Assembly: GCA_963828465.1 (NCBI GenBank)
Contig: CAWHEU010000022.1
Coordinates: 4,577-68,576 of the forward strand
DNA from: an uncultured Acidobacteriota bacterium
GTDB lineage: Bacteria > Actinomycetota > Acidimicrobiia > Spongiisociales > ZC4RG35
Length of the DNA: 64,000 bases
Direction: 5' to 3'
Numbering within the stretch: the first letter of the stretch is position 1; each line of letters begins with the position of its first letter. Below the pieces are notes generated by a model. It ran no database searches. It saw only the letters and a list, made by a program, of their open reading frames with translations, and was not told where the DNA came from. Shown here piece after piece: positions 4,036 through 43,706 of the stretch. The position numbers and the translations under genes were made by a program.

Positions 4036-4045
4036 GCCGGTACGG

Positions 4046-8772
<4,727 letters not shown>

Positions 8773-8805
8773 CTGACGCGCCCGCGGACGAACCGAGGGA
8801 CCGGG

Positions 8806-9003
8806 TCAGCCCTCCTCGGGCATGATCACCCAGAGGACGATGTAGATGAGGACCTGGGGGCCGGGGAGAATCAGCGAGAGCACGAACAGGAGCCTCATCA
8901 CCCCGTGGCTCATTCCGAAACGGTCGGCCAGGCCCGCAGCAACCCCGGCAATCATCCGATCTTCCTTGGGCCTCACCAGTCGAGGCGTCTGACGATCAGT
9001 CAT
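8806..9003 (-). CDS. PspC-domain small membrane protein
   Basis: MIAGVAAGLADRFGMSHGVMRLLFVLSLIL matches the PspC domain core. One TM helix. Confidence 0.7.
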   Translation of the reverse strand: MTDRQTPRLVRPKEDRMIAGVAAGLADRFGMSHGVMRLLFVLSLILPGPQVLIYIVLWVIMPEEG

Positions 9004-9061
9004 CTTTCCACCCTATCGGAGTCCGATCCCCGGACCTCCCGGTCGCTAGCTTCCTGGCTCC

Positions 9062-20812: not shown

Positions 20813-20892
20813 TCGACCATCGGTAGCCTGGATGTCCCACGAATGAAGGGATTCTGACCATCGTCGATCCCTGAGGTCTGAAGGGGGGACTA

Positions 20893-22398
20893 ATGACCGG
20901 CGCAATGTCGGCACCGAATCCGACATCGCGTCCCAGTGACGCTGTCTTCATCAGCTACACACACGTAGACAACAAGCCGTTCGGCCCCGAGAAGCAACGT
21001 TGGATATCGCTCCTCGACGAGCATCTGAGCGTTCGACTCGAGCAACTTGCACCAGAGCATCACGTGTCGGTGTGGCGGGACGACAAGCTCCAAGGCAACG
21101 ACGTGTTCTCCGAGTCGCTGAAGGAGCGACTGGGGGAGGTAGCAGTGTTGATTTCGGTGTGTTCGCCCAGGTACTTGGTCTCGGAGTGGTGTCAGAGAGA
21201 ACTCAATGAGTTCGTGCAGGCCCAGGCGAAGCGGGGGCTCGAAGTAGGGACGAAGAGTCGGGTATTCAAGGTGATGAAGACACCGGTGCCTCTAGACGAA
21301 CTCCCTCCTCCGCTCGCTCCGCTGTTGGGGTACGAGTTCTATGAGGTATTGCCGGAAGGCGACCACTTTCGAGAATTCCTTCTCAACCCGAATGAGGAGG
21401 CGCGATGGAAGTTCTACGCTCGAGCGGACGATCTCGCCCAGGACATCGCCGATCTGCTCGACGAGTTGGCCGATGAGGCCGTCCGCCCCGAACCGGTCAC
21501 CTCCAGCACCGTGTATCTAGCTGCGACCACATCGGATGTCTCGGAGGGCCGGGACGACCTCAAGCGGGAACTGCAGCGACGCGGCTTCCGGGTATTTCCC
21601 GATCGCGACCTGCCTTTCGTGGCAGACGACCTGTCAGCGGCCATCACTGGCTGGTTGTCCGAGTCGGACTTCTCGATCCATCTCCTCGGTGCCCGGTACG
21701 GCGCCAGGCCAGAGGGTGACGATCGGTCGATTCCCGACCTGCAACTGGAGCTTGCCCGAGGGTTCGCCAACCGACAGGTTCTGACTCAGCTCATCTGCAT
21801 CAACGACGGGCACGAGGTGGTTGAAGAAGAGCAGGTCGAACTCATCGAGAGAGTCGAGACGACGAACGTCGGCCGAGGAGTCGAAGTGGTGAAGGCTCCG
21901 TTCGATAGGTTCAAGGAACATGTCCTGGACACGATGTCTCGGAGCCCGCTGGCGACAAAAGTGGATACCGGAGCAGAGGGTAGGACCGTCTACCTCGCCT
22001 ACGACCGGGTAGACAGCGAGGCAGCTGAAGCGCTGCAGACCTTGATCGAGGATCGGGGGTACAACGTTTTGTCGCCACTCATGGAGGGATCCGAGTCTGA
22101 AGTGCGTGAAGTCCACGAAACATCGATGGTGCTGAGTGACGCAGTGCTGATCTACTACGGCAAATGCACTGAGCACTGGGTGCGAATGCGGCTCTTCGAT
22201 CTCATGAAAGTGCGCGGGTGGGGCAGAACTGAGCCTTACCTGGCTCAAGCCCTGTGGGTCGGTGCTCCCGACACGCCACACAAGGCGAAGGTGCACATCA
22301 CACAGACTCTGCTCCTGAACGGCATGGCCGATCCCGCGCTGACGGCACTCGAGCCATTCCTCGTACGTCTGGAAGGGCGCGACGCGAGCAACGGATGA
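20893..22398 (+). CDS. TIR-domain protein (N-terminal canonical TIR plus two further degenerate TIR-like modules)
   Basis: DAVFISYTHVDNK…WRDDKLQGNDVF…AVLISVCSPRYLVSEWCQRELNEF is a textbook bacterial TIR. Two later blocks beginning TVYLAATTSD… and RTVYLAYDRVDSEAAEALQ… repeat the fold signature. Stop overlaps the next start (ATGA at 22395). Confidence 0.8.
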   Translation: MTGAMSAPNPTSRPSDAVFISYTHVDNKPFGPEKQRWISLLDEHLSVRLEQLAPEHHVSVWRDDKLQGNDVFSESLKERLGEVAVLISVCSPRYLVSEWCQRELNEFVQAQAKRGLEVGTKSRVFKVMKTPVPLDELPPPLAPLLGYEFYEVLPEGDHFREFLLNPNEEARWKFYARADDLAQDIADLLDELADEAVRPEPVTSSTVYLAATTSDVSEGRDDLKRELQRRGFRVFPDRDLPFVADDLSAAITGWLSESDFSIHLLGARYGARPEGDDRSIPDLQLELARGFANRQVLTQLICINDGHEVVEEEQVELIERVETTNVGRGVEVVKAPFDRFKEHVLDTMSRSPLATKVDTGAEGRTVYLAYDRVDSEAAEALQTLIEDRGYNVLSPLMEGSESEVREVHETSMVLSDAVLIYYGKCTEHWVRMRLFDLMKVRGWGRTEPYLAQALWVGAPDTPHKAKVHITQTLLLNGMADPALTALEPFLVRLEGRDASNG

Positions 22399-25300
22399 CG
22401 GCTACGTCCCCACTATTCAATCCCTTCCCCGGTCTTCGGCCGTTTCGCGAGGACGAGACACCTCTCTTCTTCGGCCGAGATGCCCAGATCGACGAGCTCC
22501 TCGCCGAACTGGGTAGGTCCCGATTCGTAGCAGTCATGGGAGCCTCCGGAAGCGGTAAGTCGTCCCTGGTCACCGCAGGGCTTCTGCCCGCGCTCCAGGG
22601 TGGACTCTCACCGCGATTGGGGGCCAATTGGCGCATCGCCAGCTTGCGCCCCGGGGGCGACCCGGTGCGCAACCTGGCCAGGGCCCTCGTCGAACCCGGC
22701 GTCCTCGATCGAGACGGCTCCGATGAGACCAGAGGCGTCGATCAAACGGAGGCGTTGCTCAGACGAAGCGGTCTTGGTCTCGCCGATCTGGCAAGACGTG
22801 ACGAGAGCCTGAGAGACGGCCGCCTACTGGTCGTTGTCGACCAGTTCGAGGAGTTGTTCCGATTTCAGGACGCTGGGGGCAGGGCACACGACGGCGCGGA
22901 CAATCCGGCATTCGTCCGGCTCCTGATCGAGGCTGTCGCCGACGAATCCAACGTGAGTGTGATCTTGACCATGCGATCCGACTACTTGGGGGATTGTTCC
23001 CAGTTCGACCAGCTGCCCGAGACGATCAACCAAGGGCTCTATCTCGTTCCCCGGCTTACACGCACGCAGCTCCGCGGGGCGATCACCGGTCCAGTCGCCG
23101 TCGGGGGCGGAACGATTGCCCCTCGACTTGTGCAACGGCTCCTGAACGACGCCGGCGCGGATCCCGACCAGCTGCCCGTGTTGCAGCACGCCCTGATGAG
23201 GATCTGGGACCTGTGGACTGGGGACGTGACTGCTCCTGGGCCAATCGACCTCGAGCATTACGAGGCTGCCGGCGGACTCGAGGAGGCGCTCGCCCGGCAT
23301 GCCGACGAGGCATATGACGATCTGACCGACGATCGGAGCCGGCGGATCGCGGAGCTTGCCTTCAAGCGCCTCACTGAGCTCGGAAACGATGGTCGCGAGG
23401 GCCGTCACCCGGCCACGTTGGCCGAGATCGCCTCTGTTGCAGATGCCACGGTCGAAGAAACGCGCGAGGTGATCCGTCACTTCGAGCAGCCGGGAAGATC
23501 CTTCGTCATGGTGTCTGATGACGGAGTCGTCGACATCTCCCACGAAAGCCTCATTCGCCAATGGCCGAGACTCCGTGACTGGGTTGGCGAGGAGGCGGCC
23601 TCCCGAGACACGTATCACCGGCTGGCCGAGTCCGCCGGCCGATGGCGTCGAGGTGAGGCTGCTCTCATGCGAGATCCGGATCTGCAGCTAGCTGTGAACT
23701 GGTGGACGGACAACCAGCCGAGCGGTGCCTGGGCCGAGCGGTACGGCTCGACATTCCAGGACGCAGCCGACTACCTGGATCGGAGCCGCAAAGCCGAGAG
23801 AAGCCGGCGGCTTCTGACGTGGTCCGGTGTCGCAGGGCTGGGCGTCCTGGCAGTCCTGTTCGCGGTGTTGGCTGTATGGGCGATAACGGCAGAACAGGAC
23901 GCGAAGTATCAGGAACGTCTTGCTGTCGGAAGGCAACTCTCCGCGGTCTCGACCGAGCACGGACCGGAGCGTCGGACAACCAGCATCCTCACCGCATTGG
24001 AGGCTCTTCGGACTACCGAGACCGACGGACTGCGTCTCCCGGAGGCCGAGGAGGCACTGCGTGCTGCGATGCACGACCCGCTCGGCATCCGACTCCCCGG
24101 CCAGCCGGGTCAGCTCGGCCATGACGAGGATGTGACGACACTGGGTTTCAGTCCCGACGGGAGATGGTTGGCGACGGGTAGCGCTGACGACACGGTGTTG
24201 CTATGGGATCTGGAGGACACGGAAGGGGACCCGCGTCCGTTGCCCGGTCATGCCGACGACGTGGTGGCGTTGGCGTTCAGCCCCGACGCCCGTTGGTTGG
24301 CCACCGGCAGTCTCGACGGCACCGCCATGTTGTGGGACCTGGAAGATGCGGAAGCCAAGCCCCGGATCCTGGACGGCCATACAGATGAGGTGACATCACT
24401 TGCCTTCAGCCCCGATGGCAGCTGGCTTGCCACCGGGAGCGTCGACGAAACCATCCAGCTCCGTGAATTGGACAACCCGGATCTCGTGGCCCGTGTCCTC
24501 CAGAGCGAGGCGGGATTCATCCTCTGCCTGGCCTTCAGCCCTGACGAGAGGTGGCTGGCGGCCGGCACTGGCACCGGCGTCGGGTATCTGTGGGACATGG
24601 GGAATCCCGGCGGCGACCCCGAGACGCTCAGCGGTCACAACGATGCTGTGGTCGCTGTCGCTTTCAGCCGTGACGGTGCTTCGCTGGCCACCGGGAGCAG
24701 GGATGCGACGATCCGGCTATGGGACCCCGACGTTCCGACCAATCCGTTTGCCAGGCTGGAACAAGGCGACGCGGTGCTCGGCCTGGTGCTCAGCTCCGAC
24801 GGGAGATGGCTAGCCACCGGCGGTGAGGACAACGCCGCCCGTGTTTGGGACCTCCAGCGGTTGAGAGGATCCCCTGACCCGTCACTAGTCCTCGTGCACT
24901 CCGGCCCCGTGGAACGGGTCTCCTTCAGTGCTGACAACCGCTGGCTGGCCACCGGTGGTCCTGGTGACCCGGCTCGGCTCTTCCAGGTCAACGACGCGTC
25001 TCTGCCGCCCGTGGTGCTCGCCGGCCCGGTCACGGCCCTCGGGTTCAGCACCGACGACCGATGGCTGGCGATCGGATCGGATCAGGGCTCGGCTCGCCTT
25101 TGGGGGACGGACCAACTCCCAACACAACCGGCAGTGCTCGATCACGACGACAAGGTCTCAGCGATCGAATTTGGCCCGGACGGTCGTGTGGCCACGGGGA
25201 CCACAGCCAATGTCACGCGTCTGTGGAGTCTCGACGACCCTTCGGCTGAGCCCGAAGTGCTAGCGCAAACGGATTTCGGGTTCGATATGGCACAGGTGGA

Positions 25301-26141
25301 AGCGATCGCGTTCAGACCCGACGGACGTATGTTGGCCACCGGCAGCGGTGACATGCGGGTCCGGTTGTGGACGCTGGATCCTTCAGGGTCCCAACTCGTA
25401 TCCGAGGAGCCTCTCGAGGCTGGAATCAATGATCTGGCCTTTAGTGCGGACGGGGACCGGCTTGCTATCGCGGTGAAGGAAGAGGATGTCTTGCTGTGGG
25501 ATGTGGCGGAGCGGTCGTTCGAGCGTCTCGAGGGTCACAGTGCTGAGGTGCGGAGCGTGGCCTTCAGCCCGAACGGACGTTTGCTGGCCACTGGAGACCT
25601 GGACGGGGAGATCCGGGTCTGGAATCTCGAAGATCTGGAGGTTCCTCCGGAGTCTCTGCGCGCCCATGCCGAGCGGGTGACATCGTTGGCCTTCGACGGA
25701 GAGGGACGTCAGCTCGCGTCCGGGAGCTGGGATCAGACCGTCCAGATCTGGGAGGTCGACACGCGGAGCTACATCACGTTGAACACAGATGGTCGGGTCG
25801 ACAATGTAGCCCTTCGACCCGATGGGAAGTTGATTGCAGTGGCAGCCGATCAACCTCATTTATGGGATCTGACCGCCCCCGACCAGAACGACCCGATCGC
25901 CAATCCTGTCATTCTGCGGGACCACACCAGCGTCGTGAACGCGGTTGCATTCAGCGCGGACGGGAGATGGCTCGGTACCGGGAGTGACGATCACTCCGTT
26001 CGTCTCTGGCTCCAACTGGAGGAATTGGCAGAGCTCGGCTGTGCCAGCGCGGGACGGAACCTGAGTCACGACGAGGTGCAGGAAATCAATCCCGGCGCCA
26101 AGAGCGTTAGCACGTGCGAAGAATGGCCCGAGGGGTCTTAG
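22395..26141 (+). CDS. nSTAND-type P-loop NTPase (NACHT-like) with a central TM helix and ~15 C-terminal WD40 repeats
   Basis: PFPGLRPFREDETPLFFGRDAQIDELL…RFVAVMGASGSGKSSLVTAGLLP carries a Walker A motif. Walker B is LLVVVDQFEE. The hydrophobic segment LLTWSGVAGLGVLAVLFAVLAVWAI is a TM helix. Then ~15 repeats of the type GHxDxVxxLAFSPDGRWLATGSxDxTxxLWDL. Confidence 0.85.
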   Translation: MTATSPLFNPFPGLRPFREDETPLFFGRDAQIDELLAELGRSRFVAVMGASGSGKSSLVTAGLLPALQGGLSPRLGANWRIASLRPGGDPVRNLARALVEPGVLDRDGSDETRGVDQTEALLRRSGLGLADLARRDESLRDGRLLVVVDQFEELFRFQDAGGRAHDGADNPAFVRLLIEAVADESNVSVILTMRSDYLGDCSQFDQLPETINQGLYLVPRLTRTQLRGAITGPVAVGGGTIAPRLVQRLLNDAGADPDQLPVLQHALMRIWDLWTGDVTAPGPIDLEHYEAAGGLEEALARHADEAYDDLTDDRSRRIAELAFKRLTELGNDGREGRHPATLAEIASVADATVEETREVIRHFEQPGRSFVMVSDDGVVDISHESLIRQWPRLRDWVGEEAASRDTYHRLAESAGRWRRGEAALMRDPDLQLAVNWWTDNQPSGAWAERYGSTFQDAADYLDRSRKAERSRRLLTWSGVAGLGVLAVLFAVLAVWAITAEQDAKYQERLAVGRQLSAVSTEHGPERRTTSILTALEALRTTETDGLRLPEAEEALRAAMHDPLGIRLPGQPGQLGHDEDVTTLGFSPDGRWLATGSADDTVLLWDLEDTEGDPRPLPGHADDVVALAFSPDARWLATGSLDGTAMLWDLEDAEAKPRILDGHTDEVTSLAFSPDGSWLATGSVDETIQLRELDNPDLVARVLQSEAGFILCLAFSPDERWLAAGTGTGVGYLWDMGNPGGDPETLSGHNDAVVAVAFSRDGASLATGSRDATIRLWDPDVPTNPFARLEQGDAVLGLVLSSDGRWLATGGEDNAARVWDLQRLRGSPDPSLVLVHSGPVERVSFSADNRWLATGGPGDPARLFQVNDASLPPVVLAGPVTALGFSTDDRWLAIGSDQGSARLWGTDQLPTQPAVLDHDDKVSAIEFGPDGRVATGTTANVTRLWSLDDPSAEPEVLAQTDFGFDMAQVEAIAFRPDGRMLATGSGDMRVRLWTLDPSGSQLVSEEPLEAGINDLAFSADGDRLAIAVKEEDVLLWDVAERSFERLEGHSAEVRSVAFSPNGRLLATGDLDGEIRVWNLEDLEVPPESLRAHAERVTSLAFDGEGRQLASGSWDQTVQIWEVDTRSYITLNTDGRVDNVALRPDGKLIAVAADQPHLWDLTAPDQNDPIANPVILRDHTSVVNAVAFSADGRWLGTGSDDHSVRLWLQLEELAELGCASAGRNLSHDEVQEINPGAKSVSTCEEWPEGS
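24100..26010 (+). repeat. ~15 tandem WD40 repeat units (coding repeats) forming two beta-propellers
   Basis: The recurrent peptide AFSPDGRWLATGS…RLWDL is visible ~15 times, including the degenerate units at ~25142 and ~25860. Confidence 0.8.
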
Positions 26142-26151
26142 GCGCGGTCGC

Positions 26152-27213
26152 TCAGGACGGCGGGGGGGAGATCAGGGTCACTACTGCCAAGAACTCGCCG
26201 TCGTTGTTGGTGACGCCGATGTCGTTGATCCCGAGGTAGAGACGACCGTCGGATTCGACGGTCGTCTGGAACTCACTGCCCACTTCGAACGGGACCCCAT
26301 TCTCTCCGATTTTTCCGATGAGCCCGGCATGATTGGCATCCTCGACCCCGGGCAGATTGGATTCGTGTCCCGGAAGGTTGGGGTCACCATCAGGAGTGAG
26401 CAGCGGGCCGTTCTCGGAGTGCTTTATCCGGCCGCCGGCTTCGATGTCGAGTGTGACTCCCGTGACGACATCGATACCGGAGTCCGTCCACAACACCGTG
26501 CCGGGCACCCGGACAGTCTGAGTTTTCGATGGCTCGGCATCGCATGCCTGAAATCCACCGACAAACTCTCCAAGCGGCGGAGCATCCGGGTCCAGCCGCG
26601 CCTCCTCGAACCACGCATTGAATTCTTGGGTGGGAACGCATATCGCGGGCCCCGGGGCCTGGCCTTTGGTCAGAAACGCGGCCTCGGTATAGGTTCCCTC
26701 CCTTGCCTCGTAGGTCTGGGAAAGACCCTCGGAGGTGAGCTCGATCGACCCCTTCTTGACCACGACACACGTGTTCTCAGTCGGCGGCTGACAAGCCGTG
26801 AACACCGTGGCGGGCTCCAATGCCGTGATGGTCGAGCTCGACGTTTCCAGTGTCAGACGGGTGTCGCTCACTTCGTCGTCGGTGAAGGTGACATGACCGC
26901 CGCCGAGGTACGCCCTCGCTTCCGCCGGTTCCCAGCTCTCGAGTTGGATGGCCGCCTGCCTGGACAACTCGAATCTGCCCAGGTCTCGGATCGTGAGGAG
27001 CCCACTGGCGCCGGGCCCCAACGTGATCTGGTTTCCCAGATCGATCGATTCACCGTCCCCGGTGCCGATCTCGGTTTCGCTCACCGAAATAGGGCCCTTA
27101 TAGACAACCAGATCTGCCTGCATGGGCGGTGTGACTTCATCTCCTCCGCAGGCAGCTAAGGCGAGGGTGATGAGCGTGATAGCCAGTCCCCCCCGAGACT
27201 TCCGTCGCAACAT
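26152..27213 (-). CDS. secreted lipoprotein with a beta-rich C-terminal domain, function unknown
   Basis: MLRRKSRGGLAITLITLALAACGGDE gives a lipobox LAAC. The Gly/Thr/Asp-rich C-terminus looks like a beta-sandwich. The ORF extends to 27258. Confidence 0.65.
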   Translation of the reverse strand: MLRRKSRGGLAITLITLALAACGGDEVTPPMQADLVVYKGPISVSETEIGTGDGESIDLGNQITLGPGASGLLTIRDLGRFELSRQAAIQLESWEPAEARAYLGGGHVTFTDDEVSDTRLTLETSSSTITALEPATVFTACQPPTENTCVVVKKGSIELTSEGLSQTYEAREGTYTEAAFLTKGQAPGPAICVPTQEFNAWFEEARLDPDAPPLGEFVGGFQACDAEPSKTQTVRVPGTVLWTDSGIDVVTGVTLDIEAGGRIKHSENGPLLTPDGDPNLPGHESNLPGVEDANHAGLIGKIGENGVPFEVGSEFQTTVESDGRLYLGINDIGVTNNDGEFLAVVTLISPPPS

Positions 27214-27395
27214 GCTCCCTCCAGTCCGGTCAACTCTATCCGAGGTCTGGTGGCCCAACAGGGCGAGAACCGCATATGGGCCACCATCCCGAAAGGAGCG
27301 GGTTGGAGCGGCGCTGATACGAGGATCGGGCCGCCCACGACGGCCGTCTCCGGTTAGCCCAGCCGCGTAGGCTCGGCCGTCGAAAGGGGGACTCG

Positions 27396-28344
27396 ATGGC
27401 CCATGTGACTTTCGTTCACGGAATCATGAATCAGCCTTCGCCCGCACGTCTGCTCAGGGAGTGGAAGCGGGACTTGGCCGACGGTGGGGACGGAGTGGAT
27501 CTCGATGTGTACGGCGTGACGTCATCGATGGTGTACTGGGCGGACGTCATGTATGCCGCCGCCACCGACGCCGGGGGCAGCCTCTCACGAGTCGATCGAG
27601 TACGAGGGCATCGAGTCGGGCGCCCTCACCGAGGTCGACGAGTCGTACATCGCCGAAGCGAGCGGGGACGAGAAGGACTTCATCGAGTCGATGATCGCCA
27701 ACTACGACCTCGACCATCCCGACGTGCCGGCAGCCGAGGCCGCTCCGGACGCGGGGGCAGAGGCCAGGGTGGCGGCGGCGTCGGCGTTGGAGGCAATACC
27801 TCTGCCGTGGTTCGTCAAGCGGCCGCTGATGCGGCTGCTGTTGCGTGACGTCCACCACTATCTCTTCAACACCAGTCATTCGCCTCGAACCGGGTCCAGC
27901 TACAAGGTCCGCGATGAGGTGAGGAAGCGGTTCGGCGCCGACCTCGGGGCCGTCGACGGTGGGCCCCATGTCGTAGTTGCGCACAGCCTCGGCTCGGTGA
28001 TCGCGTATGACTGTCTCAAACGGGTTGCCGGCACCAAGAAAGTGGACCTGCTGATCACGATCGGCACGCCGCTCGGCATGTCCGAGGTCCAGCACAACTT
28101 GAAGCCAGAGTGGTCGAAGGACGACGGCTACCCCGGAGAACTGCCGCGCTGGGTGAACGTGGTCGATCGTCTCGACCCGGTTTGTGTGGCCGACCCGATC
28201 ATCGCCAACGACTACATGCGGAAGAAGGCAGGCGTGGTGGTCGACGAGGTCGTGTCCAACGGCGGGGTGATGCGCCATCCGTCCGGCAAGTACTTCCGAC
28301 AGGCGGTCGTTCAGGATGCGGTGCGCAATGGATTGGGTGTCTGA
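27396..28344 (+). CDS. alpha/beta-hydrolase fold (lipase/esterase-like, GxSxG = AHSLGS); 1-nt frameshift in a G5 run near 27580
   Basis: N-terminus VTFVHGIMNQP, the nucleophile elbow VVVAHSLGSVIAYDCL and LLITIGTPLG are in two frames. These join at gccGGGGGcagc (27575-27586). RBS aaagggggac before the ATG. Confidence 0.7.
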
Positions 28345-28353
28345 GGGAGCCGG

Positions 28354-29919
28354 ATGTCGTTCTTCGACTCGCCACTTGGTGAGCAGCTCCGCTCCAGCCT
28401 CGATGCGGGGAAACCAGAGGACATCGCCGCCGCGGTAGGGGTGGTCAAGGGGAAGGTGTGGTCGGGGACAGTGCAGCCCGATCAGGTCGACGAGGTCCTC
28501 GCAGAACTGCAGCGACAACGACAGGTTCAGCACGTCATCGACATCGCCGATGCGGCCACCGCGGTCGGCTCGATCACGACGTCGGGCCGTCGCCGCTACT
28601 GCCAGATGCTGATCGAGTCGGGAGCCCTCCATGCCGGCGAGCTCGCCTGCGCAGAGCTTCTCGATCTGGCCGAGGATGCGAAGGAGCGGGGGGAGGCACT
28701 GGGGCTGCTCGGGCGGATCCGCAAGCAGCGTTACGTGACCAGCCGCCGGCCCGAGGATTTGATCGGCGCAATTGCCGCCTATCAGTTCGCATACGCGGGA
28801 GGCGGCGACCCGCTCTGGCATGGCATCAATCTCCTCGCACTCACCACCCGGGCCCATCGTGACGGAATCCTCGTTCCCCAACCGGTCGACACGGACGCTC
28901 TGACACGCACGCTCCTCGACGTAGTCAGGCAGACGGCACCCGAGTTGCAAGAGATCTGGGAGCGCACCACCGAGGTCGAGGCCCTGGTCGCCCTGGGCGA
29001 CAAGGCGTCGGTGGACGAAGCGGTGTCGGTGGCACAGAAACTCGCCAGCAGCAAGAGTGTCCGGCCGTTTGAGCTGGAGAGCCTTCGCCGTCAGCTGGCC
29101 GACATCTGGGAACTCGAGCCGCATCACCCGGTGCTGGTGGCCATCGCAGCGCAGAAGCTCCAACTCGGGGCCAGGGCCCATGTCGAGCTGCCCGATTCCG
29201 CGGGCCAGTTGGAGAAGATCTTCGGGACGGCCCTGCCTGTGGGGTACAAGCACCTGATGAGGGGTCTCGAGTGCGCAGAATCGGTGGGAAAGATCACCGA
29301 CGCATCCGAAGAGCCGTGGGGCACGGGATTCCTCCTACGCGGGAATCTGATCCATCCCGACTTCGGCGATGGACTGGTGCTGGCTACCAACGCCCACGTC
29401 TGTAGTCCAGAGCCCGGAGTGGGCAAGCTGCTGCCGAGCGAGGCGAAGGCTGTCTTCGACGTGACCAAGTCGGTCGATGGGGAGCAACTCGTCCTCACCG
29501 GCTTCGAGTGCCTGTGGAGCTCACCACCCTCGGTATGCGATGTCACCATCCTTCGCTTCACCGGACCCGAGCCGGCGCTCAAAGGCCAGCTCGACGTCGC
29601 CGCGTTGCCCCAGCCAGTGACGGAGGGCGCATATGTCTATGTCATCGGCCATCCGGCGGGGGGTGGGATCAAGTTTTCGATCAGGGGCAACGACCTTCTC
29701 GCCTATGACGCCGACATGTTCAAAGTCCACTACACCGCCCCCACCGAAGGGGGCAGCTCCGGGAGCCCGGTCTTCAACCAGGCATGGCAGCTGATGGCTG
29801 TTCATCACGCTGGAGATTCGAAGATGCACCGACTGGACGACCCTTCCGCTACGTATCAGGCCAACGAGGGGATCACGATCAAGGGGATCAGAGAGGAGTA
29901 CTCCAAGAATGGAAAATGA
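28354..29919 (+). CDS. N-terminal alpha-helical (TPR-like) domain fused to a C-terminal trypsin-like serine protease
   Basis: Catalytic triad context: LATNAHV (His), YDAD (Asp), GGSSGSPVF (Ser) in the C-terminal ~220 aa. The N-terminal ~300 aa is helical. No signal peptide. Confidence 0.8.
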   Translation: MSFFDSPLGEQLRSSLDAGKPEDIAAAVGVVKGKVWSGTVQPDQVDEVLAELQRQRQVQHVIDIADAATAVGSITTSGRRRYCQMLIESGALHAGELACAELLDLAEDAKERGEALGLLGRIRKQRYVTSRRPEDLIGAIAAYQFAYAGGGDPLWHGINLLALTTRAHRDGILVPQPVDTDALTRTLLDVVRQTAPELQEIWERTTEVEALVALGDKASVDEAVSVAQKLASSKSVRPFELESLRRQLADIWELEPHHPVLVAIAAQKLQLGARAHVELPDSAGQLEKIFGTALPVGYKHLMRGLECAESVGKITDASEEPWGTGFLLRGNLIHPDFGDGLVLATNAHVCSPEPGVGKLLPSEAKAVFDVTKSVDGEQLVLTGFECLWSSPPSVCDVTILRFTGPEPALKGQLDVAALPQPVTEGAYVYVIGHPAGGGIKFSIRGNDLLAYDADMFKVHYTAPTEGGSSGSPVFNQAWQLMAVHHAGDSKMHRLDDPSATYQANEGITIKGIREEYSKNGK

Positions 29920-30721
29920 CGCAATCCCTCCGGAGTTCCTGGAGCCCGAGGGCGACGCCGAGCGCCAGGATCCCGACCTCGTCTTCGAGACGACGTCAGC
30001 GACACTACGGGGGCTGTGGAATGACTGGATGTGCAAACGAGGTGACGGGACTTTCGTCGACGTCGAATTCTTCGGCCGCCGGATCGGCGGAGTGCCGACC
30101 CCGGCGGTCGACGCCTATCGGGCGCTCGAGGTAGCCCTGCGCTCCGCCGGTTACAAGCCAGATTCGCGGTGGGCGTACAACTGCAGGCTCATCGAGGGGA
30201 CGGACAAGCCCTCGCTGCACTCGGCCGGGATCGCAGTTGACATCGACCCGGACGAGAACCCGTTCTCGAAGGGTGACCCCTTCGCCGGGAAGATGGGTCC
30301 CGACCATGTCGCCGCGGCGCTGGCCATTCGCAACAGCGCCGGCGCCCGGGTGTGGTCCTGGGGCGGGCATTGGAACAAGCCCGATCGGATGCACTTCCAG
30401 CTCGACAGGGGGCCTGCGGCGGTGGATGTGGATTGGCGAACCGTCCCCGGTGGTGGCCCCGAAAGCGCCAGTTCGGGGTCAATGGACGTGAAGGAGGAAG
30501 AGATGGTTCTGTCCAAGAGCATGAAAGGCCCAGCAGTGGAGCGGTTCCAGCAGTGCCTGCTCGATTGGAATGCCAAGGCGCTGCCGAAGGACGGAGCCGA
30601 TGGTGTTTTTGGGAGCGAGACCGTCGAATGGGTGGGGCGGTTCCAGGAGGCCCTTGGTCTGGAGAAGACCGGAGTGATCGACGGGGTGACCGCGGCCTTG
30701 CTGGTCGCCCACGGGAAGTAA
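29909..30721 (+). CDS. M15 family (VanY/D-Ala-D-Ala carboxypeptidase-like) zinc peptidase with a C-terminal peptidoglycan-binding (PG_binding_1) domain; no signal peptide
   Basis: SLHSAGIAVDID (H…D zinc ligands) and GGHWNKPDRMHFQ (His). C-terminal GPAVERFQQCLLDWN…DGVFGSETVEWVGRFQEALGL matches the PG-binding fold. 11-nt overlap with the upstream stop. Confidence 0.8.
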   Translation: MENDAIPPEFLEPEGDAERQDPDLVFETTSATLRGLWNDWMCKRGDGTFVDVEFFGRRIGGVPTPAVDAYRALEVALRSAGYKPDSRWAYNCRLIEGTDKPSLHSAGIAVDIDPDENPFSKGDPFAGKMGPDHVAAALAIRNSAGARVWSWGGHWNKPDRMHFQLDRGPAAVDVDWRTVPGGGPESASSGSMDVKEEEMVLSKSMKGPAVERFQQCLLDWNAKALPKDGADGVFGSETVEWVGRFQEALGLEKTGVIDGVTAALLVAHGK

Positions 30722-30727
30722 CAAGCC

Positions 30728-32245
30728 ATCAAGGTCTTCCTGAGCTACCGGCGGGACGACACGGCGGGGCGCGCCGGAAGGCTCCACGACGCCCTGGCCT
30801 CGAGTTTCGGCACCCGCAACGTGTTCATGGACGTTTCCGCCATCGCGGTCGGCACCGACTTCGTCGACCAGGTGGAACGAGCGATCTCGACGAGCGACGC
30901 CTCGCTGGTGGTGATGGGGCCGAATTGGCTCGGGGCCACTGACCCCGAAGGCCGTCGGCGGCTCGACGATCCCCAGGACCACGTGAGGTCTGAGGTGCGC
31001 TCCGCGCTGGCCTCACCCAACCCGGTGGTTCCGGTGCTGGTCGGGGATGCATCGTTGCCGACCGAGGACCAACTGCCTGACGATCTGAAAGCCCTGGCGC
31101 GCCGACAAGCCGTGGAATTGCGGGACGAGACATGGTCTGAAGATGTCGAGATGCTGGTCCGGCGTCTCGAAGGCAAGGAGACGGTCCGGGAACCCCGCCG
31201 CTGGATTCTGCTGGCCATTGGCTTGATACTCCTGGGTGGCGTCGGCGCCGCTATCTGGATGGCTCAGGCAGGCGGCGAGGATGAGTTGACCCAATGCTCG
31301 GTGCCGGACGAGACATGGACCACGATCGACGTGGAACCCGGCGCCACGGACGTCGAACAATTGGAGCGGGATCGGGCACTCCGCTACACGGTGGTGAGTA
31401 CGGATTTCAGGGATGAACCCGGGGACGAGTGGTACGTCGTGCTCCATGTGAGGCTGGAGAACGAGTCCACGGACGTGGCGGGAAACGACGACCACACCGG
31501 GTACGGACCGTCGATCTTCGACGCCCTGCACGTCGATGAGATCTCGGTCGGGGGCCCTTACTGCTTTGGCGAGAACAGTGGTGACAGCGATCTCGCCCCG
31601 GGGGAGGCGGCCAACGCACGGGTTGGATTCCTCTCCGTACCTGGACCCCACCGAGGCAAGTCTGATGCTCGAGACCGATGGGCCCCTCTTTATCGAGATC
31701 ACCCCGGGCGCGTGATGCCGACGGTCCTGTTCTCGGGCCACATGGTCGATGCACCAGACCGGCCGTCTCCACGCTTCCCACCCGAGCGTGTTCCCCTGGT
31801 GCGGCGGGCGATCGCGGAAGCCGTCTGGCTCATCGATGACACCGACGCGGAGGCGATCTCGGGACTCGCCTGCGGGGGCGATCTCCTCTTCGCCGAGGAA
31901 TGGCTGAAGACCGGGCGGCCCTTGCACGCCTATCTGCCACGTGAAGAGGCGGATTTTCTCGACGAGTCGGTTCGTTTTGCCGGCTCGGAGTGGGTGGACT
32001 CGTTCCGTGAAGTGACCGCTGATCCGAACCTGGTCCTGATCGGTCCGGACCAAGAGATGCTTGGTTTGAACGAACCGCACACCGCGAACAACCTCCGCAT
32101 GCTCGAAGCTGCGTTGCTGCGGCCCGGCGCCCTCAACGGTCTGTTCCTTTGGGACGGCAAGGGAGGCGACGGTCCGGGAGGCACCGAGCACCTGGCCTCT
32201 GAGGTGGTCGAGCAGGGCGGGAGTGTCACCGTTCTCCGTCCGTAG
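30728..32245 (+). CDS. TIR domain – TM helix – C-terminal Rossmann-like (LOG/SLOG-like) domain protein; non-canonical start (ATC where ATG is expected)
   Basis: (I/M)KVFLSYRRDDTAGRAGRLHDALASSFGTRNVFMDVSAIAVGTDF…ASLVVMGPNWL is a canonical TIR. TM helix RRWILLAIGLILLGGVGAAIWMA. The C-terminus has ISGLACGGDLLFAEEWL … LFLWDGKGGDGPGGTEHL, reminiscent of LOG/SLOG Rossmann domains. The reading frame is open only from the TAA of the upstream gene (30719-30721). The first in-frame ATG (30830) lies inside the TIR domain. Confidence 0.65.
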   Translation: MKVFLSYRRDDTAGRAGRLHDALASSFGTRNVFMDVSAIAVGTDFVDQVERAISTSDASLVVMGPNWLGATDPEGRRRLDDPQDHVRSEVRSALASPNPVVPVLVGDASLPTEDQLPDDLKALARRQAVELRDETWSEDVEMLVRRLEGKETVREPRRWILLAIGLILLGGVGAAIWMAQAGGEDELTQCSVPDETWTTIDVEPGATDVEQLERDRALRYTVVSTDFRDEPGDEWYVVLHVRLENESTDVAGNDDHTGYGPSIFDALHVDEISVGGPYCFGENSGDSDLAPGEAANARVGFLSVPGPHRGKSDARDRWAPLYRDHPGRVMPTVLFSGHMVDAPDRPSPRFPPERVPLVRRAIAEAVWLIDDTDAEAISGLACGGDLLFAEEWLKTGRPLHAYLPREEADFLDESVRFAGSEWVDSFREVTADPNLVLIGPDQEMLGLNEPHTANNLRMLEAALLRPGALNGLFLWDGKGGDGPGGTEHLASEVVEQGGSVTVLRP

Positions 32246-32285
32246 GTTTCGACGAGGAAGCTGTCCTTCCGCATAAGGTTGAAGG

Positions 32286-33128
32286 ATGGGATTTCGCCTG
32301 GCCCTCGTCCAGCCGGTCGCCCATCGTCCGCCGGACGACGAGCGGAATGTGATGGATGCACTGGGGCAGATCTCTTACGCCGGCTCACAGGGTGCGGAAG
32401 TCGTGGCGTTTCCCGAGACCTACCCGGGCCCGTGGCGCACACCGATGACATTCGATCCCACGGAGGCGATGGCGGCTGCAGCGAGAGAGCACGGCGTTAC
32501 GATCCAGTTCGGAACGCTGGAAGCAATCCCAGGTGAACCCGAGGCGGCGTACAACGTCCTCAAGCTGATCGGCCCTGACGGAAGCATCAGCGGTGTCTAC
32601 CGCCGCACTCACCCGCCCGGGCCATGGATCTACGCCGGTGGGGTCTGGGATTTCGACTATCGGGTCGGCAACGAGTACCCGGTGTTCGAGAGTGAACATG
32701 GGACCGTCGGGCTGGCGATGTGCAGCGAAGCGTTCATGCCCGAGGTGACCCGTGCCCTGGCGCTGCGCGGGGCTGAGATCATCTTCATGCCCGCCGGAAT
32801 CGACAAGAAGAAACTGTGGGCCGCCTGGCGAAACCTGATCTGGGCCCGGGCCACAGAGAACCTGGCCGTGGTTATCACGACTCAGAACCTCTTCGACAGA
32901 TCCGAGCGAGGTCTGGCCATGGTTGCGCAACCCGAAGAGGTGATTTTCGAGGATGACGGCCCCGGCACCTTTCTGATCGACCTCGACCTCACGAGGATCC
33001 GCGAGATGCGGGAGCAAGTGGACGGCCCGAAGTCATCGGAGGAATACGGCGCCAAGCCTGGTGTGCTCACCCAGTGGCAAAGACCCGAGATGCGGGACAA
33101 GGTCTATCCCGCGGTAACCCGCACATAG
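32286..33128 (+). CDS. carbon-nitrogen hydrolase (nitrilase superfamily)
   Basis: Catalytic triad context: FPETY (Glu), AGIDKKK (Lys), LAMCSEAF (Cys). 280 aa. Confidence 0.85.
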   Translation: MGFRLALVQPVAHRPPDDERNVMDALGQISYAGSQGAEVVAFPETYPGPWRTPMTFDPTEAMAAAAREHGVTIQFGTLEAIPGEPEAAYNVLKLIGPDGSISGVYRRTHPPGPWIYAGGVWDFDYRVGNEYPVFESEHGTVGLAMCSEAFMPEVTRALALRGAEIIFMPAGIDKKKLWAAWRNLIWARATENLAVVITTQNLFDRSERGLAMVAQPEEVIFEDDGPGTFLIDLDLTRIREMREQVDGPKSSEEYGAKPGVLTQWQRPEMRDKVYPAVTRT

Positions 33129-33145: not shown

Positions 33146-36065
33146 CTAGGACCGGTCCTCGATGGCCTCCGGGGGCTCGATCCACTGCAATACCGTTCGG
33201 TAGTCGGCGGCGGCCCCTTCGGCGATCAGGCGGTCCCGCTCCGGTGGAAGGAGACCACCCTCGACCTCTTCACGGAATCGGGCCATTTCGTCCGGACTGG
33301 CCCCGACCCGGTTCCGCTCGACGCTGCCGAGAAACCGGGCGGCTGCAGACAGGTCACCTTCCGCCAGAGCAAGACGGAGGGCCTGTGCCGGGATCCCGGC
33401 CTGGACCTCTCGATCGAAGAGGAGGAGACGGTGGGCGGCCGATGTGAGCTCGACCCTGGCCGCCGCGAGACGTCCTTCATCGATGTGGCTGCGGATCGCA
33501 CGGGCGCCCGATCGGGCGGAGCAGGGCAGATCACCCACTTCGGCCAAGATCCCGGCTGCCTCGGCCAGATCGTCGGTTGAGGCCCCCAGTCCGAGATCCT
33601 GGGTCACCGCCCCGTGGTAGTAGAGGGCATGGCCCAACCCGTGACGGGATCCCAGATCACTCAGGATCTCGATGCTCTGGCGCAAGTTGGCCAGGACCCA
33701 CTCATCGTGACCGGATCCGATGTGGCTGGCCGAGGTCATCATCGATGCCGCGGCCAGATATCCGTCGCCGACCGTCAGCGCCTTCGAGATCGCGGCTTCG
33801 ACATGCTCCCGCCGCTGTTCCGGAGGACCGGCCTGCCCGAAGGCGAGCATGAACTCGATGATCGCCTGATCCCATTCCGGGTCCCACATCGGCGGGTGCC
33901 GGACATTCGCCAGAATCTGACGACCCTCCTCCATCCAGCCGCCCGCGTCCTGATGACCGACGAGGTTGGAATAGGCCATCCCGCGGGTCAGCGTGAGCCA
34001 CCCGACGAGCGCGTCGTCCCCGGCGCTCCGGGCACATTCGAGACCCAGATCTGCATAGTTCACCGCGGCCGGGTCGGTGAGGAAGGTCGCCAGCAGAGAA
34101 GCGGCCAGCCACGCCCTGGCGGCCATGGCGGGCGAGGCTTCGTCGCCATGTGATCGGAGCGCTCCCACCAACAGGTCCCGGCCTTCGACCTGGAGACTGG
34201 ATTGGGCCCAGAACCAGGTCAGATCGAATCCGATGTCGAGGAATCGGTCGATCTCCCCACGGCCGAGCAACGTGGACATGGCAACGCGGATGTTGTCGTT
34301 CTCCAAACAGGAGACTGCGGTTGGCCTGACGCTGGTCGGGACCGCGCAAGCTCGGGGCGATCTGCGCCACTGCGTTGGCGTAGTGAATGGCGTGGAGGAG
34401 CCGTACTTCGTCTTCCTCTCCTTCATCGGCCAGACGGGCCTGTCCGTATTGGCGGATCGGCTCGAGGAGTCGGAAGCGAGAAAAGCGAGCTTGCTGGATA
34501 GGCACCACGAGCGACTTGTCCACCAGCTGATCGAGCAAACCGAAGACATCGGTGGTGTCTCCGACGTTCTCAGCAGCAGGGAGATCGAACCCGCCGGCGA
34601 AGACCGAAAGACGTCGGAAAAGCGCCGACTCTTCCTCGCTGAGCAGGTCGTAGGACCAGCCGATCGTGTTCTCGAGGGTTCGCTGCCGGCGCACCGTCGT
34701 CTTCGAGGCTGCGGTGAGGACCCGGAACGACGTCTCGAGCTGGTCGGCGAGGTCGAGGAGGGTGAGAGTGCGGACCCGTGCCGCGGCCAGCTCGATGCCG
34801 AGAGGAATCCCGTCGAGACGACGGCAGATCCTGGCGATGGCTTCCAGGTCGGCGTGCGAAGGGGCGAGATCCGGCTTCATCCTGGCGGCCCGGTCGAGGA
34901 AGAGACGCACCGACTCCGATCGCGCCAGGTCCGATCCCTCTCCGGGCAGGCCAAGCGACGAGACCCGGAACACGATCTCGGCGGAGGTCCCGAGCGTCTC
35001 CCGTGATGTGGCCAGGATCGACAGGCCGGGGCTGGATCCGAGCATTTCTACCGCGATCGCCGCAGCCTCTTCGAGGAGGTGCTCACAGTTGTCCAGCAGC
35101 AATAGGAGCTTTCTTCGGGCTAGGTGAGCCTTGATCACCTGGATCAGGCCCATCCCGTCGCCGGCGCGCAGGCCCCAGACGTCGGCCACCTCATTCACGA
35201 CCAGGGCCGGATCTGCGATGTCGGCCAGCCCGGCCATCCAAACGCCATCAGGGAAGTCGTCTCCGAGGGCTCCGGCTACTTCCATGGCGAGACGGGTCTT
35301 GCCGGTCCCACCAACCCCGGTGAGGGTTACCAGCCTGTTGGACTGGAGCAGGGCCTTTACTTCCTCGAGGTCCTCGCGCCTCCCTACAAACGAGGTGAGT
35401 TGCGCCGGGAGATGAACCAGGTCGACCGGCTCGGTGCGCAGTGGCTCGGTTACCTCGGGCAGATCGGGATGGAGCAGCTCGAAGAGGCGCTCCGGGCGTT
35501 CCAGGTCCCTGAGAGGATGGACCCCTCGGTCCTGCAACTCCATGGGGGCTTCAACCAATTCTGCGGTCAGCTCAGCAGTGGCTCCCGACACCAGAATTTG
35601 CCCACCGTTCGCCGCTGCCATCACGCGGGCCGCCCTGTTCACATCGGGCCCGAAGTAATCGCCGGCCCGTTCGTACGAAGTGCCGGTATGGACCCCAATC
35701 CTGACGCGGATCGCCGGCCCTTCCCAAGCTTCGTCCAGAAGACCGAGCTGGGCCCGCATTGCGGCGCCAAGCGCGGCCAACGGCGTGGTGAAGGCGGCGG
35801 CAAAAGAATCCCCGGCGCTGGAGAAGACGTACCCATCGAGGTCAGCGATGGCGGATTCGAGAATGCGGTCGTGGGCGATCAGGCTCGCCGCCATGCCGTC
35901 ACGGTCCGCTTCCCAAAGACGGGTCGAACCGGCCACGTCGCTGAACAGGAACGAGACCGTGCCGGTGGGCCTGGAGTCCACCGTCGGAGGGTATCGGGGT
36001 CCCACGCGGGCCGCTAAGACGTCGGGTTCTACCGCGTCGGCAGGAACCAGTAGACGTAGCCGCAC
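33146..36065 (-). CDS. class III adenylate cyclase – NB-ARC/AAA ATPase – TPR STAND-family protein (paralog 1); frameshift near 34306-34328
   Basis: TGTVSFLFSDVAGSTRLWE…GDSFAAAF (cyclase). TLTGVGGTGKTRLA (P-loop). LLLLDNCEHL (Walker B). TPR-like C-terminus. The last ~390 aa are in another frame (33146..34549). Confidence 0.8.
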
Positions 36066-37616: not shown

Positions 37617-39201
37617 CTAGTTCTCGCGTCGGGTGGAGAGAGCTTTTTCCGTCAGGGCGAACACCTTGACCGGTCTCTGTACACCCTTCATCACCAGGTC
37701 TTCGACCGGAACCCCATCGACCCGGTCCTGTACCGCTGCCATGGTCCGCTCAGAGACCAGGACCTGACGCGGCTCGGCAGCCGTGGCAAGTCGAGCCGCC
37801 ACGTTCACGTGGTTTCCCACCACCGTGTAGTCGGTCCTCGTCGACGAACCGATGTTGCCCACCGTGACATATCCGGTGCTGATCCCGACGCCGACGGAGA
37901 GCTCCTCCTCAGAACGCATCCACGTGGCCCGCAGCTCCTCCACCTTGGCCAACATCTCGAATGCGGTAGCCACGGCCCGTTCGGCATGATCCTCGAACGG
38001 GATGGGATCACCGAAGAAAGCAAGCACTCCGTCCCCCAGGTACTTGTCCAGCGTGCCCCCGTTGGAGAAAACGATGTCGGTCATGGCGCTGAAGTACTCG
38101 TTCAGGGCATCGACGAGCTCCTCTGGCTCCATTCGCTCCGCGATCTGTGTGAAACCCCGGATGTCCGAGTAGAGGATCGTCAGATTGCGTCGGACCGAGG
38201 CGAAGGCCACCGGCTCGTCCCCGGCGAGTATCGCGTCCGCCACTTGCGGAGAGACGTATCGCCTCAGCTGCTCGGTCCGCTGCAGCTGGGTGACCTGTTC
38301 TTCGATGGTCTGCTCCAGATTGGCATTGAGCTGGCTCAATCCCTCGTACAAGGTGGAGAGCTGCCTGCTCGTCCGGTTCAGGTTGACCGTCAGCCTCCCG
38401 AACTCGTCACGGTTGGGGACTTCTACTTCCTGGCCGAAGTCGCCGTCGGCGATCCTTCCCAGTGCCAGATCGATCTTTCGCACCGGGCGCACCAGCGACC
38501 ACGACAGGATGGCTCCCATCGCCAGAGCGGTGAGCAGGCTGACCCCGGCGAACGCGGCAACAGTCACCGTGAGGAAGCGGCGATTCCCCCGGAAGTTCTC
38601 GAGCTCGGACGCAATGTCTTCCCTCCAGCGAGCCGATCATCAGGTTGAGATCGTCTTCCAGCTCATGTGAGATCTCGTGCTCGGCCGAGATGTGAACATC
38701 GGAGGCTCGGGTCATGTCGCCGGCCTCGTAGAAAGCCAAGACTTCTTCAGCTGCCTCGGCGTACCGGAGGTCGGTTGCGTCGATTCGGTCGACGATGGCG
38801 ACCAGCTCTTCGTCTGCCACATCTCTGATCGCCTGCATGTCGTTCGTGAAGTTCTCTTTGGCCTGGGCGATCTTGTCGTTCCACGAGTCGACCTGGGTGA
38901 TCAGGGCCATAGCCCGGTAATGGCTCTGCGCTGTCACTGCATAGATGCCCTGCTGGGCGAGCTCCAGCTGATCTTGGAGCTCGATCACCTGGTCCATCTG
39001 CCGGTTCATCGCGTTGATCACGACGATGCTGAAGACCCCCATGGCAAGAAGGAGCAGCGCACTCAACAGGAAGCCGGCGAGCAGCTTGGTGTGGATCGTC
39101 GCCGGCGCACGCGCCACCATGTCGATGAGCGGGCGCACCCAACGGACGGGGAGTGGATCTGGATTTGGTTCCGGCGCGCCCTGATTGACCGCGTCTGTCA
39201 T
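37617..39201 (-). CDS. membrane sensor adenylate/guanylate cyclase with a HAMP domain; frameshift near 38620-38635
   Basis: N-terminal TM, periplasmic helical sensor, second TM, HAMP (DGDFGQEVEVPNRDEFGRL), cyclase (ILYSDIRGFT…LDKYLGDGVLAFFG). The two halves are in different frames. Confidence 0.8.
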
Positions 39202-43691: not shown

Positions 43692-43706
43692 GGGCTCCGA
43701 CCGAAA

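Follow-up and report, generated by a model that had tools for sequence, protein, structure and literature searches.

We analysed a 64,000-nucleotide stretch of contig CAWHEU010000022.1 (hereafter, the window), in which the initial annotation had placed a plus-strand cassette of five hydrolytic and effector-type genes at 27396-33128. The first gene (27396..28344) encodes an α/β-hydrolase (ABH) of approximately 315 amino acids, and is followed after 9 bp by a gene (28354..29919) for a 521-amino-acid protein in which TPR-S, a sensor-type TPR domain, is joined to a trypsin-like serine protease. The protease gene overlaps by 11 bp with a gene (29909..30721) for a signal-less, LAS-type M15 peptidoglycan peptidase carrying a PG_binding_1 domain. 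Next, after 6 bp, comes a gene (30728..31715) for a TIR protein with a transmembrane (TM) helix and an extracytoplasmic domain of approximately 130 amino acids (TIR–TM), which would be read from an ATC codon. It overlaps by 1 bp with the gene (31715..32245) for P176, a stand-alone YpsA-like SLOG protein of 176 amino acids with no Pfam family, and 40 bp further downstream lies the gene (32286..33128) for a nitrilase-superfamily protein (CN_hydrolase). All genes are encoded on the plus strand. The annotated open reading frames (ORFs) and their tight spacing (9, −11, 6, −1 and 40 bp) were thus confirmed, as were the domain assignments: Pfam detected Abhydrolase_6 weakly (24.4 bits vs a cutoff of 26.3), TPR-S (2.1e-12) and Trypsin_2 (2.9e-15), Peptidase_M15_4 (1.5e-11) and PG_binding_1 (2.3e-09), TIR_2 (5.4e-14 when read from 30722), and CN_hydrolase (2.7e-28).

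In contrast, the number of genes and two of the gene models required correction. The annotation had described a single TIR–TM–SLOG protein, on the basis of a 474-amino-acid ORF. This ORF is an artefactual fusion caused by a 1-nt insertion near 31636, which moves the last ~26 codons of TIR–TM into the frame of the P176 gene; the other frame of the window still preserves the native C-terminus of TIR–TM, ending in LETDGPLFIEITPGA, together with its stop codon (31713-31715). In relatives, TIR–TM (~330 amino acids) and a gene of 176–177 amino acids are separate, with a TGATG stop/start overlap between them, and the cassette therefore has six genes, the lower count being a sequence artefact. The identification of the first gene as an α/β-hydrolase held, although not as a single ORF in the window: its pieces lie in frame 0 (27396..) and frame +1 (27553..28344) owing to a +1 insertion near 27579, so that the N-terminus MAHVTFVHG and the body with HSLGS are read in separate frames. 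Since a truncated 263-amino-acid hydrolase ORF is present as called in the public protein collection (P0265, from a 603,886-bp contig), the deposited assembly itself evidently carries the insertions. Compared with four independent relatives, further +1 insertions were detected in unrelated flanking genes at ~20205, 20435, 34306 and 38617, and additional insertion sites may lie at 48567 and ~63280. At least five genes are split; a HAMP–cyclase gene and a minus-strand guanylate-cyclase/HTH_77 gene of 972 amino acids (33146-36065) are among them. In total, at least six uncompensated indels were counted; all were +1, no nonsense codons were found, and the sequence past each shift remained highly similar to the orthologues. 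Because of these properties, and because unrelated genes are affected as well, the insertions are probably assembly errors. Pseudogenization specific to the island was rejected, as the indels occur window-wide.

We then compared 80 genome loci anchored on the protease, together with additional contigs of relatives. Orthologues of the protease were 52–97% identical across Acidimicrobiia, and relatives of 32–40% identity were found in many phyla. The catalytic triad H348/D396/S469 was invariant across 25 sequences, down to 31% identity. The hydrolase showed the α/β-hydrolase fold and a Ser-Asp-His triad with a nucleophile elbow, which places it in the superfamily; the label of lipase is not established by these features. 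Protease, hydrolase and M15 peptidase all have intact catalytic residues. The hydrolase gene lay immediately 5′ of the protease gene in every Acidimicrobiia orthologue with upstream DNA, and likewise in 32 of 56 distant loci; the distant loci were from Acidobacteriota, Proteobacteria, Gemmatimonadota, Planctomycetota, Myxococcota, Deinococcota and Bacteroidota. In a reciprocal check, all three distant hydrolase homologues tested were followed by a TPR-S–trypsin gene, each with TIR genes within 5 kb. These results indicate that the invariant core of the cassette is the pair of α/β-hydrolase and TPR-S–trypsin protease, with the protease as its hub. With a hydrolase gene 9 bp upstream of a sensor-fused trypsin-like protease, the core has the arrangement of known pairs in which a protease activates a pro-enzyme. 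Sequence-only searches of the PDB with the hydrolase and with P176 gave no informative match. At three distant loci (L167–L169), the neighbours of the hydrolase–protease pair are TIR genes that also encode WD40, CHASE2 or prokaryotic YEATS (pYEATS) domains, and a Schlafen/AlbA_2 gene is located near the pair in L167.

The third gene of the cassette contains the zinc-binding and catalytic motifs SxHxxGxAxD and DxxH, in the form of SLHSAGIAVD and DRMH, as in LAS-type endolysin-like peptidases, and matched the phage endolysin PHROGs 1512 and 2649 at ~1e-11. It has no hydrophobic N-terminus, and the only TM segment of the cassette is in the TIR protein; the peptidase is therefore signal-peptide-less, as annotated. 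A prophage lysis cassette was considered and rejected, because only the M15 protein matched PHROGs. At loci in which the hydrolase is absent, the slot directly upstream of the protease was occupied by a signal-less Amidase_2 (four Bacteroidota loci), by GH108 with PG_binding_3 (four alphaproteobacterial loci), or by a TIR–LRR–Roc–COR protein. At two Acidimicrobiales loci, an NlpC/P60-like amidase was found one gene further upstream, behind an unannotated ORF of 352–358 amino acids. Thus, non-homologous, signal-less peptidoglycan hydrolases (M15, GH108, Amidase_2 and NlpC/P60-like) recur around the core. An SLT_2 protein beside the protease in L053 bears a signal peptide, and was for this reason set aside as coincidental. 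In addition, genes for TIR–TM–N-acetylmuramidase and TIR–FGE-sulfatase proteins adjoin the protease gene in L064 (13171-15132), L078 (12931-14517) and L085 (6765-8363), the former repeating the layout of the window TIR–TM protein, namely, TIR inside, a TM segment, and a ligand domain outside.

The association of these genes is far beyond chance. In a census of 136 ORFs lying no more than 2.6 kb from the protease, TIR_2 was found 14 times, PG_binding_3 six times, TPR-S and Amidase_2 five times each, GH108 four times and Muramidase twice; in a matched control of 136 ORFs taken from beyond 5 kb, the families were ordinary metabolic ones, and no TIR or wall hydrolase was included in the top 25. 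Of the 26 orthologous loci, 19 have a TIR gene within 5 kb of the protease, as do 15 of the 56 distant ones. The M15, TIR–TM and P176 genes were common but dispensable among the orthologues. L004 contains only the hydrolase, protease and P176 genes, lacking both M15 and TIR–TM; L005 lacks the TIR–TM and SLOG genes, while its M15–SH3 gene is encoded on the opposite strand and a Macro-domain gene and two additional TPR-S proteins are present; and in L003, the order is M15, P176 and TIR, with SLOG and TIR exchanged.

The TIR–TM protein is predicted to contain a single TM helix at residues 160–178, which would place the TIR domain in the cytoplasm and the C-terminal domain of ~130 amino acids outside. 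The glutamate in a D-x-V-R-x-E motif was conserved in all TIR–TM orthologues and, with its position assigned by motif, would correspond to the catalytic glutamate of Thoeris TIR proteins. The match to curated models of named Thoeris types was limited to PADLOC ThsB1, at only 8.3e-08 over 65 residues, with no match to an effector model; the NCBIfam model ThcB4 scored 34.6 bits, where the cutoff is 220. The start of the TIR domain lies at 30728, with ATC, and not at the listed GTG at 30821: the β-strand motif IKVFLSYRRDD starts 6 bases past the M15 stop codon, and the TIR–TM reading frame contains no ATG, GTG or TTG before 30821. Across the loci, the codon at the start position was ATC in ten (for example, L001 at 7429, L006 at 8079 and L016 at 5604), TTG in three and ATG in one. 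A purine-rich, Shine–Dalgarno-like sequence is located 6–9 nt 5′ of this position, and in L001 an in-frame TAG directly precedes the ATC. The 31 codons from the ATC up to the first canonical start (30728-30820) are conserved at the protein level, their changes being synonymous. Because the leader peptide is conserved in this manner, an AUC start of TIR–TM is the best reading of the alignment and is probably the one used.

P176 showed a Rossmann-like, YpsA-like SLOG fold with glycine-rich loops, as is characteristic of the SLOG superfamily. The family of P176-type SLOG domains is unannotated and comprises 3697 clusters at 50% identity. In all ten multidomain members sampled (P0372-P0407), the SLOG domain was C-terminal to TPR-S, while the heads preceding TPR-S–SLOG were SLATT_1, a protein kinase, AAA_35–TIR or unannotated regions of ~200 amino acids. 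In L064 (6949-8952), L078 and L085 (5037-6674), a TPR-S–SLOG gene adjoins a TPR-S–trypsin gene. The nearest described relatives are YpsA and the ThsA-SLOG clade, from which P176 differs in having no Pfam match and in standing alone, and from which its family differs in being fused after TPR-S and not after SIR2. By domain assignment, both the P176 SLOG and the TPR-S of the protease would be of the kind known to bind TIR-made nucleotides, as is the case for the partners of TIR proteins in Thoeris systems.

Several characterized systems share parts of this organization. In the validated type VIII Thoeris, the TIR protein ThsB makes cyclic ADP-ribose (cADPR), and this molecule switches on ThsI, a protein labelled 'CMP hydrolase and TPR'; the authors suggested that the TPR of ThsI perceives cADPR (bioRxiv 10.64898/2025.12.03.692087). 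Since NCBIfam contains no ThsI model, the comparison with ThsI was made via a plasmid homologue: on the E. coli plasmid pKMi029_2 (L166, NZ_CP147111.1, record positions 569-4339), a ThsB_TIR protein sharing 56% identity with the type VIII ThsB tested from Yersinia adjoins a 402-amino-acid protein consisting of an N-terminal nucleotide-hydrolase-like domain and TPR-S (PF20308, 1.5e-17), which fits the description of ThsI. From this we infer that TPR-S is the TPR of ThsI. The same plasmid carries a type VII-like pair, ThsB_TIR with SLATT_3/SLATT_1, beside the type VIII-like pair, with a recombinase gene adjacent. The cassette resembles type VIII Thoeris in placing a TIR gene beside a protein with a TPR-S-type TPR, but its TPR-S is fused to trypsin instead of a nucleotide hydrolase head, its TIR is a TIR_2-type membrane protein and not ThsB_TIR, and it includes the extra hydrolase, M15 and SLOG genes. 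In type IV Thoeris, the TIR product N7-cADPR activates a caspase-like protease (bioRxiv 10.64898/2025.12.03.692087). The pairing of TIR with a downstream protease is common to both, whereas type IV proteolysis is caspase-like and indiscriminate, and the cassette enzyme has a trypsin fold with TPR-S, for which dedicated pro-enzymes are proposed as targets.

A parallel for such targets is found in the Hachiman and AVAST pairs, in which an upstream-encoded pro-nuclease has been proven to be unmasked by a sensor-fused trypsin-like protease (Tuck et al. 2025, PMC12799240). The gene order, an upstream hydrolase followed by a sensor-fused trypsin-like protease, is the same, while the components differ: an MBL nuclease with a Hachiman or STAND sensor in the proven pairs, and an α/β-hydrolase or wall hydrolase with TPR-S and a putative activation by cleavage in the cassette. 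Kaur et al. 2020 (PMC7159879) predicted, by computation, conflict systems with an α/β-hydrolase gene invariably beside the peptidase gene, as well as NucA–trypsin systems in which lysozyme or papain-like enzymes are taken up as wall hydrolases. These systems resemble the cassette in the peptidase and α/β-hydrolase pairing and in wall-degrading effectors; in them, however, a caspase is paired with the α/β-hydrolase, and vWA-MoxR, STAND or effector-associated adaptor domains (EADs) are needed, and the text covered contains no description of a TPR-S–trypsin, α/β-hydrolase and SLOG combination. Full-text searches for TPR-S or PF20308 returned nothing relevant, and the searchable literature yielded no account of the constellation, one probably relevant paper lying beyond reach.

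Upstream of the cassette lie a gene for a TIR_2 and DUF4062 protein (20893..22398, plus strand; domains by Pfam) bearing the canonical S-x-W-C-x-x-E-L motif, a gene overlapping it by 7 nt for an nSTAND1 nucleoside triphosphatase (NTPase) with WD40 repeats (22392..26141, plus strand; Pfam nSTAND1 2.8e-102, WD40 1.5e-114), and a minus-strand gene (26152..27258) for a lipoprotein with the lipobox LALAAC, a probable ATG start at 27213 and no Pfam family; an orthologue of the lipoprotein was found in L002 and in a JGI contig. This module (20697-27335) is situated between flanks that are common to L001, L006 and L028. At these three loci, the flanks enclose instead a 3.2-kb module that encodes a TIR–TM–Big_9–TPR protein and a different lipoprotein, P322 (L001 884-4040), and the TIR–TM–Big_9–TPR module takes the place of the STAND pair at approximately 15 loci. 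The window protease is 97% identical to those of L006 and L007, which have the alternative module, and 86% identical to that of L002, which has the STAND module. Because the distribution of the modules is incongruent with protease similarity, this implies that the upstream module has been exchanged by recombinational swapping. Relative to L001, the cassette proteins were 80–93% identical, and the flanking genes 95–98%. The TIR–TM–Big_9–TPR genes (L001 ~1075-1140, L006, L010, L012, L018-L020 and L028) contain no ATG, GTG or TTG between an in-frame TAG and the motif FISYRR, and the leader TAG GTT GCA CCG ATC GGA CTG AGA is conserved before this motif; these genes may represent a second case of a non-canonical start on a TIR gene.

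The initial annotation had regarded the cassette genes as effectors of the upstream STAND NTPase, and, together with that pair, as a conflict island whose block would vary among relatives. The variability was borne out, as the upstream module is swapped and the M15, TIR and SLOG genes are variably present. Similarly, the proposal of a conflict-type gene repertoire stands in so far as the protease is flanked by TIR genes and wall hydrolases across phyla; the part that assigned them a STAND-effector role does not, since the closest relatives (protease identity 89–97%) have a different module in place of the STAND pair and most loci lack it. Most relatives with the cassette either lack the nSTAND1-WD40 gene or carry something else instead, which is not the behaviour of an obligate NTPase core. 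No adaptor domain of the EAD or Death-like kind was detected in the cassette proteins by Pfam at E≤0.01. The membership of the nitrilase-type gene was not sustained either. CN_hydrolase was found only where the protease was at least 84% identical, that is, in the closest clade, and in some cases lies apart from the cassette by 1–1.5 kb, with inserts in L014, L028 and the JGI contig; for these reasons, it is a neighbour and not a conserved component. In CN_hydrolase and its seven orthologues (8/8), the Glu and Cys of the active nitrilase triad are retained, but Arg replaces the catalytic Lys (YRRTH vs YRKSH or HRKIH in solved relatives).

A homologue, at ~81% DNA identity, of a small PspC-domain gene of the window (8791-9015, minus strand) is located between the SLOG and CN_hydrolase genes in L002 and the JGI contig, whereas in L014 and L028 it comes shortly after the CN_hydrolase gene. 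Three paralogous, large regulator genes of the guanylate-cyclase/AAA/TPR/HTH_77 type are present in the 64-kb window (33146-36065, 43692-46928 and 60629-63322), and the HAMP–cyclase gene lies at 37617-39201. The 33.15-37.6 kb segment seems to be inverted in L008, with similar junctions in the short contigs L088 and L091. The window is ~65% G+C, with no compositional break between 20 and 34 kb; the cassette, at 0.63–0.66, is like the rest of the window, and the expected G+C deviation was therefore not observed. Homologues of the window proteins belonged to named Acidimicrobiia metagenome-assembled genomes. A promoter and terminator scan gave nothing above the shuffled expectation, and Rfam and tRNA scans gave no match.

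Taken together, we consider it moderately probable that the cassette is a modular conflict operon, for abortive infection or programmed lysis, that is centred on the TPR-S–trypsin protease and acts as a Thoeris-like, protease-relayed lysis system. A cue from the envelope or an invader would be detected by the operon's own TIR–TM protein and by the interchangeable TIR modules upstream, each with its lipoprotein, and the TIR proteins would make an NAD-derived nucleotide. This nucleotide would be read by TPR-S jointly with the SLOG protein, the two domains being fused in thousands of other proteins, and the reading would switch on the trypsin domain. The protease would then cleave and unmask cytoplasmic pro-enzymes, the α/β-hydrolase and the endolysin-like peptidase, which would attack the membrane and the wall, leading to lysis of the cell before the invader cycle is complete. 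Owing to its ATC start, the TIR protein would be made only in small amounts. Such a relay fits both the anatomy of the locus and the precedents described above, and each of its steps is one that we infer. A bolder and more specific version seems unlikely, though conceivable: a new Thoeris-type protease relay, in which Toll-like-receptor-shaped TIR proteins, helped by lipoproteins, respond at the envelope to damage or phage contact, a split TPR-S/SLOG receptor reads their nucleotide product and passes the signal to trypsin, and gated lytic pro-enzymes (the α/β-hydrolase and endolysin-like peptidase here; GH108, amidase and NlpC/P60-like enzymes in other phyla) carry out self-lysis. In this version, the combination of a wall-recognition enzyme fold, a serine protease and TIR would parallel the PGRP–protease–Toll cascade of insects.

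Among the alternatives, the one that deserves the most weight, as a minority possibility, is that the region is a defence island of independent small systems with no relay between them, composed of TIR-DUF4062/nSTAND1-WD40, the hydrolase with TPR-S–trypsin, a Thoeris-like pair of TIR–TM and SLOG, and a stand-alone lysin. The hydrolase–protease pair indeed occurs alone at many distant loci, stand-alone TIR and TPR-S/SLOG pairs exist, as on pKMi029_2, and the variable content of L004 and L005 and the swapped order in L003 would be expected of separable units. However, the overlapping or 6–9-bp junctions are kept from the hydrolase to P176, SLOG is fused elsewhere to TPR-S, the very domain found in the protease, and non-homologous wall hydrolases appear repeatedly in the same slot beside the protease. 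A single NTP-dependent system of ~12 kb, with the cassette genes as effectors of the upstream STAND NTPase, is improbable. It draws on the adjacency of the STAND pair in the window, in L002 and in the 67-kb JGI contig (and, inverted, in L003, of 71% protease identity), and on Kaur et al. 2020, where peptidase and α/β-hydrolase pairings and wall-degrading effectors occur in such systems; it is opposed by the replacement of the pair at the ~15 loci, relatives with a 97% identical protease included, by its absence at most distant loci, by the failure of Pfam to find an adaptor domain, and by the minus-strand lipoprotein gene and a 137-bp gap between the pair and the cassette.

We regard as still less probable a housekeeping or developmental role in envelope remodelling, such as regulated autolysis, wall turnover or lipid remodelling. 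The wall hydrolases have no export signals and are phage-endolysin-like, the genes are linked to TIR, SLATT, STAND, pYEATS and Schlafen-like genes, the distribution across phyla is patchy and in unrelated genomic contexts, and the sensor modules are swapped between close relatives; these features outweigh the native composition, the lack of an empty site, the retention of the operon across the Acidimicrobiia clade down to 52% protease identity, and the effect of YpsA on cell division in Bacillus (PMC6459960). Least credible, and very nearly dismissed, is a decaying cluster in which the frameshifted hydrolase and TIR genes are genuine pseudogenes. Two frameshifts within 5.7 kb and the public record of the truncated ORF (P0265) are compatible with decay, but the +1 insertions, at least six in number, also affect unrelated flanking genes that are 95–98% identical to their orthologues, and both nonsense codons and downstream decay are absent.

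Several observations weigh against the proposed relay. A TIR gene was absent within 5 kb at 41 of 56 distant hydrolase–protease loci, and a TIR signal is therefore not obligatory for the core, which may respond to a different cue and receive TIR input only as an addition. The link to ThsI is based on a homologue and not on the tested protein itself. Gating of the hydrolase is hinted at only by predicted, low-confidence disordered acidic inserts at residues 59–76 and 114–133. No PADLOC model matched the hydrolase, M15, P176 or CN_hydrolase or covers the core pair, and the remaining matches were weak and generic. A metagenome scan that used the guanylate-cyclase/HTH gene of the right flank revealed no empty site, and recovered only four close orthologues, one carrying the cassette and the others showing the inversion; because close relatives offered no empty site, mobility of the cassette is unproven. 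Recent horizontal transfer was rejected on the basis of the native composition, which also weighs against the conflict-operon reading.

If the protease-relayed lysis system is correct, it would extend two recent experimental principles, the activation of a protease by a TIR-made nucleotide and the unmasking of a co-encoded pro-enzyme by a trypsin-like protease, to a new class of effectors whose target is the envelope in place of NAD+ or DNA. Both the widespread TPR-S domain and the unannotated SLOG family would thereby gain a concrete role. The conserved AUC start on a TIR gene would be a small case of restraint on the expression of a toxic enzyme. The pair of α/β-hydrolase and TPR-S–trypsin, in a system of two to five genes, is common in soil phyla that are poorly covered by the defence catalogues.

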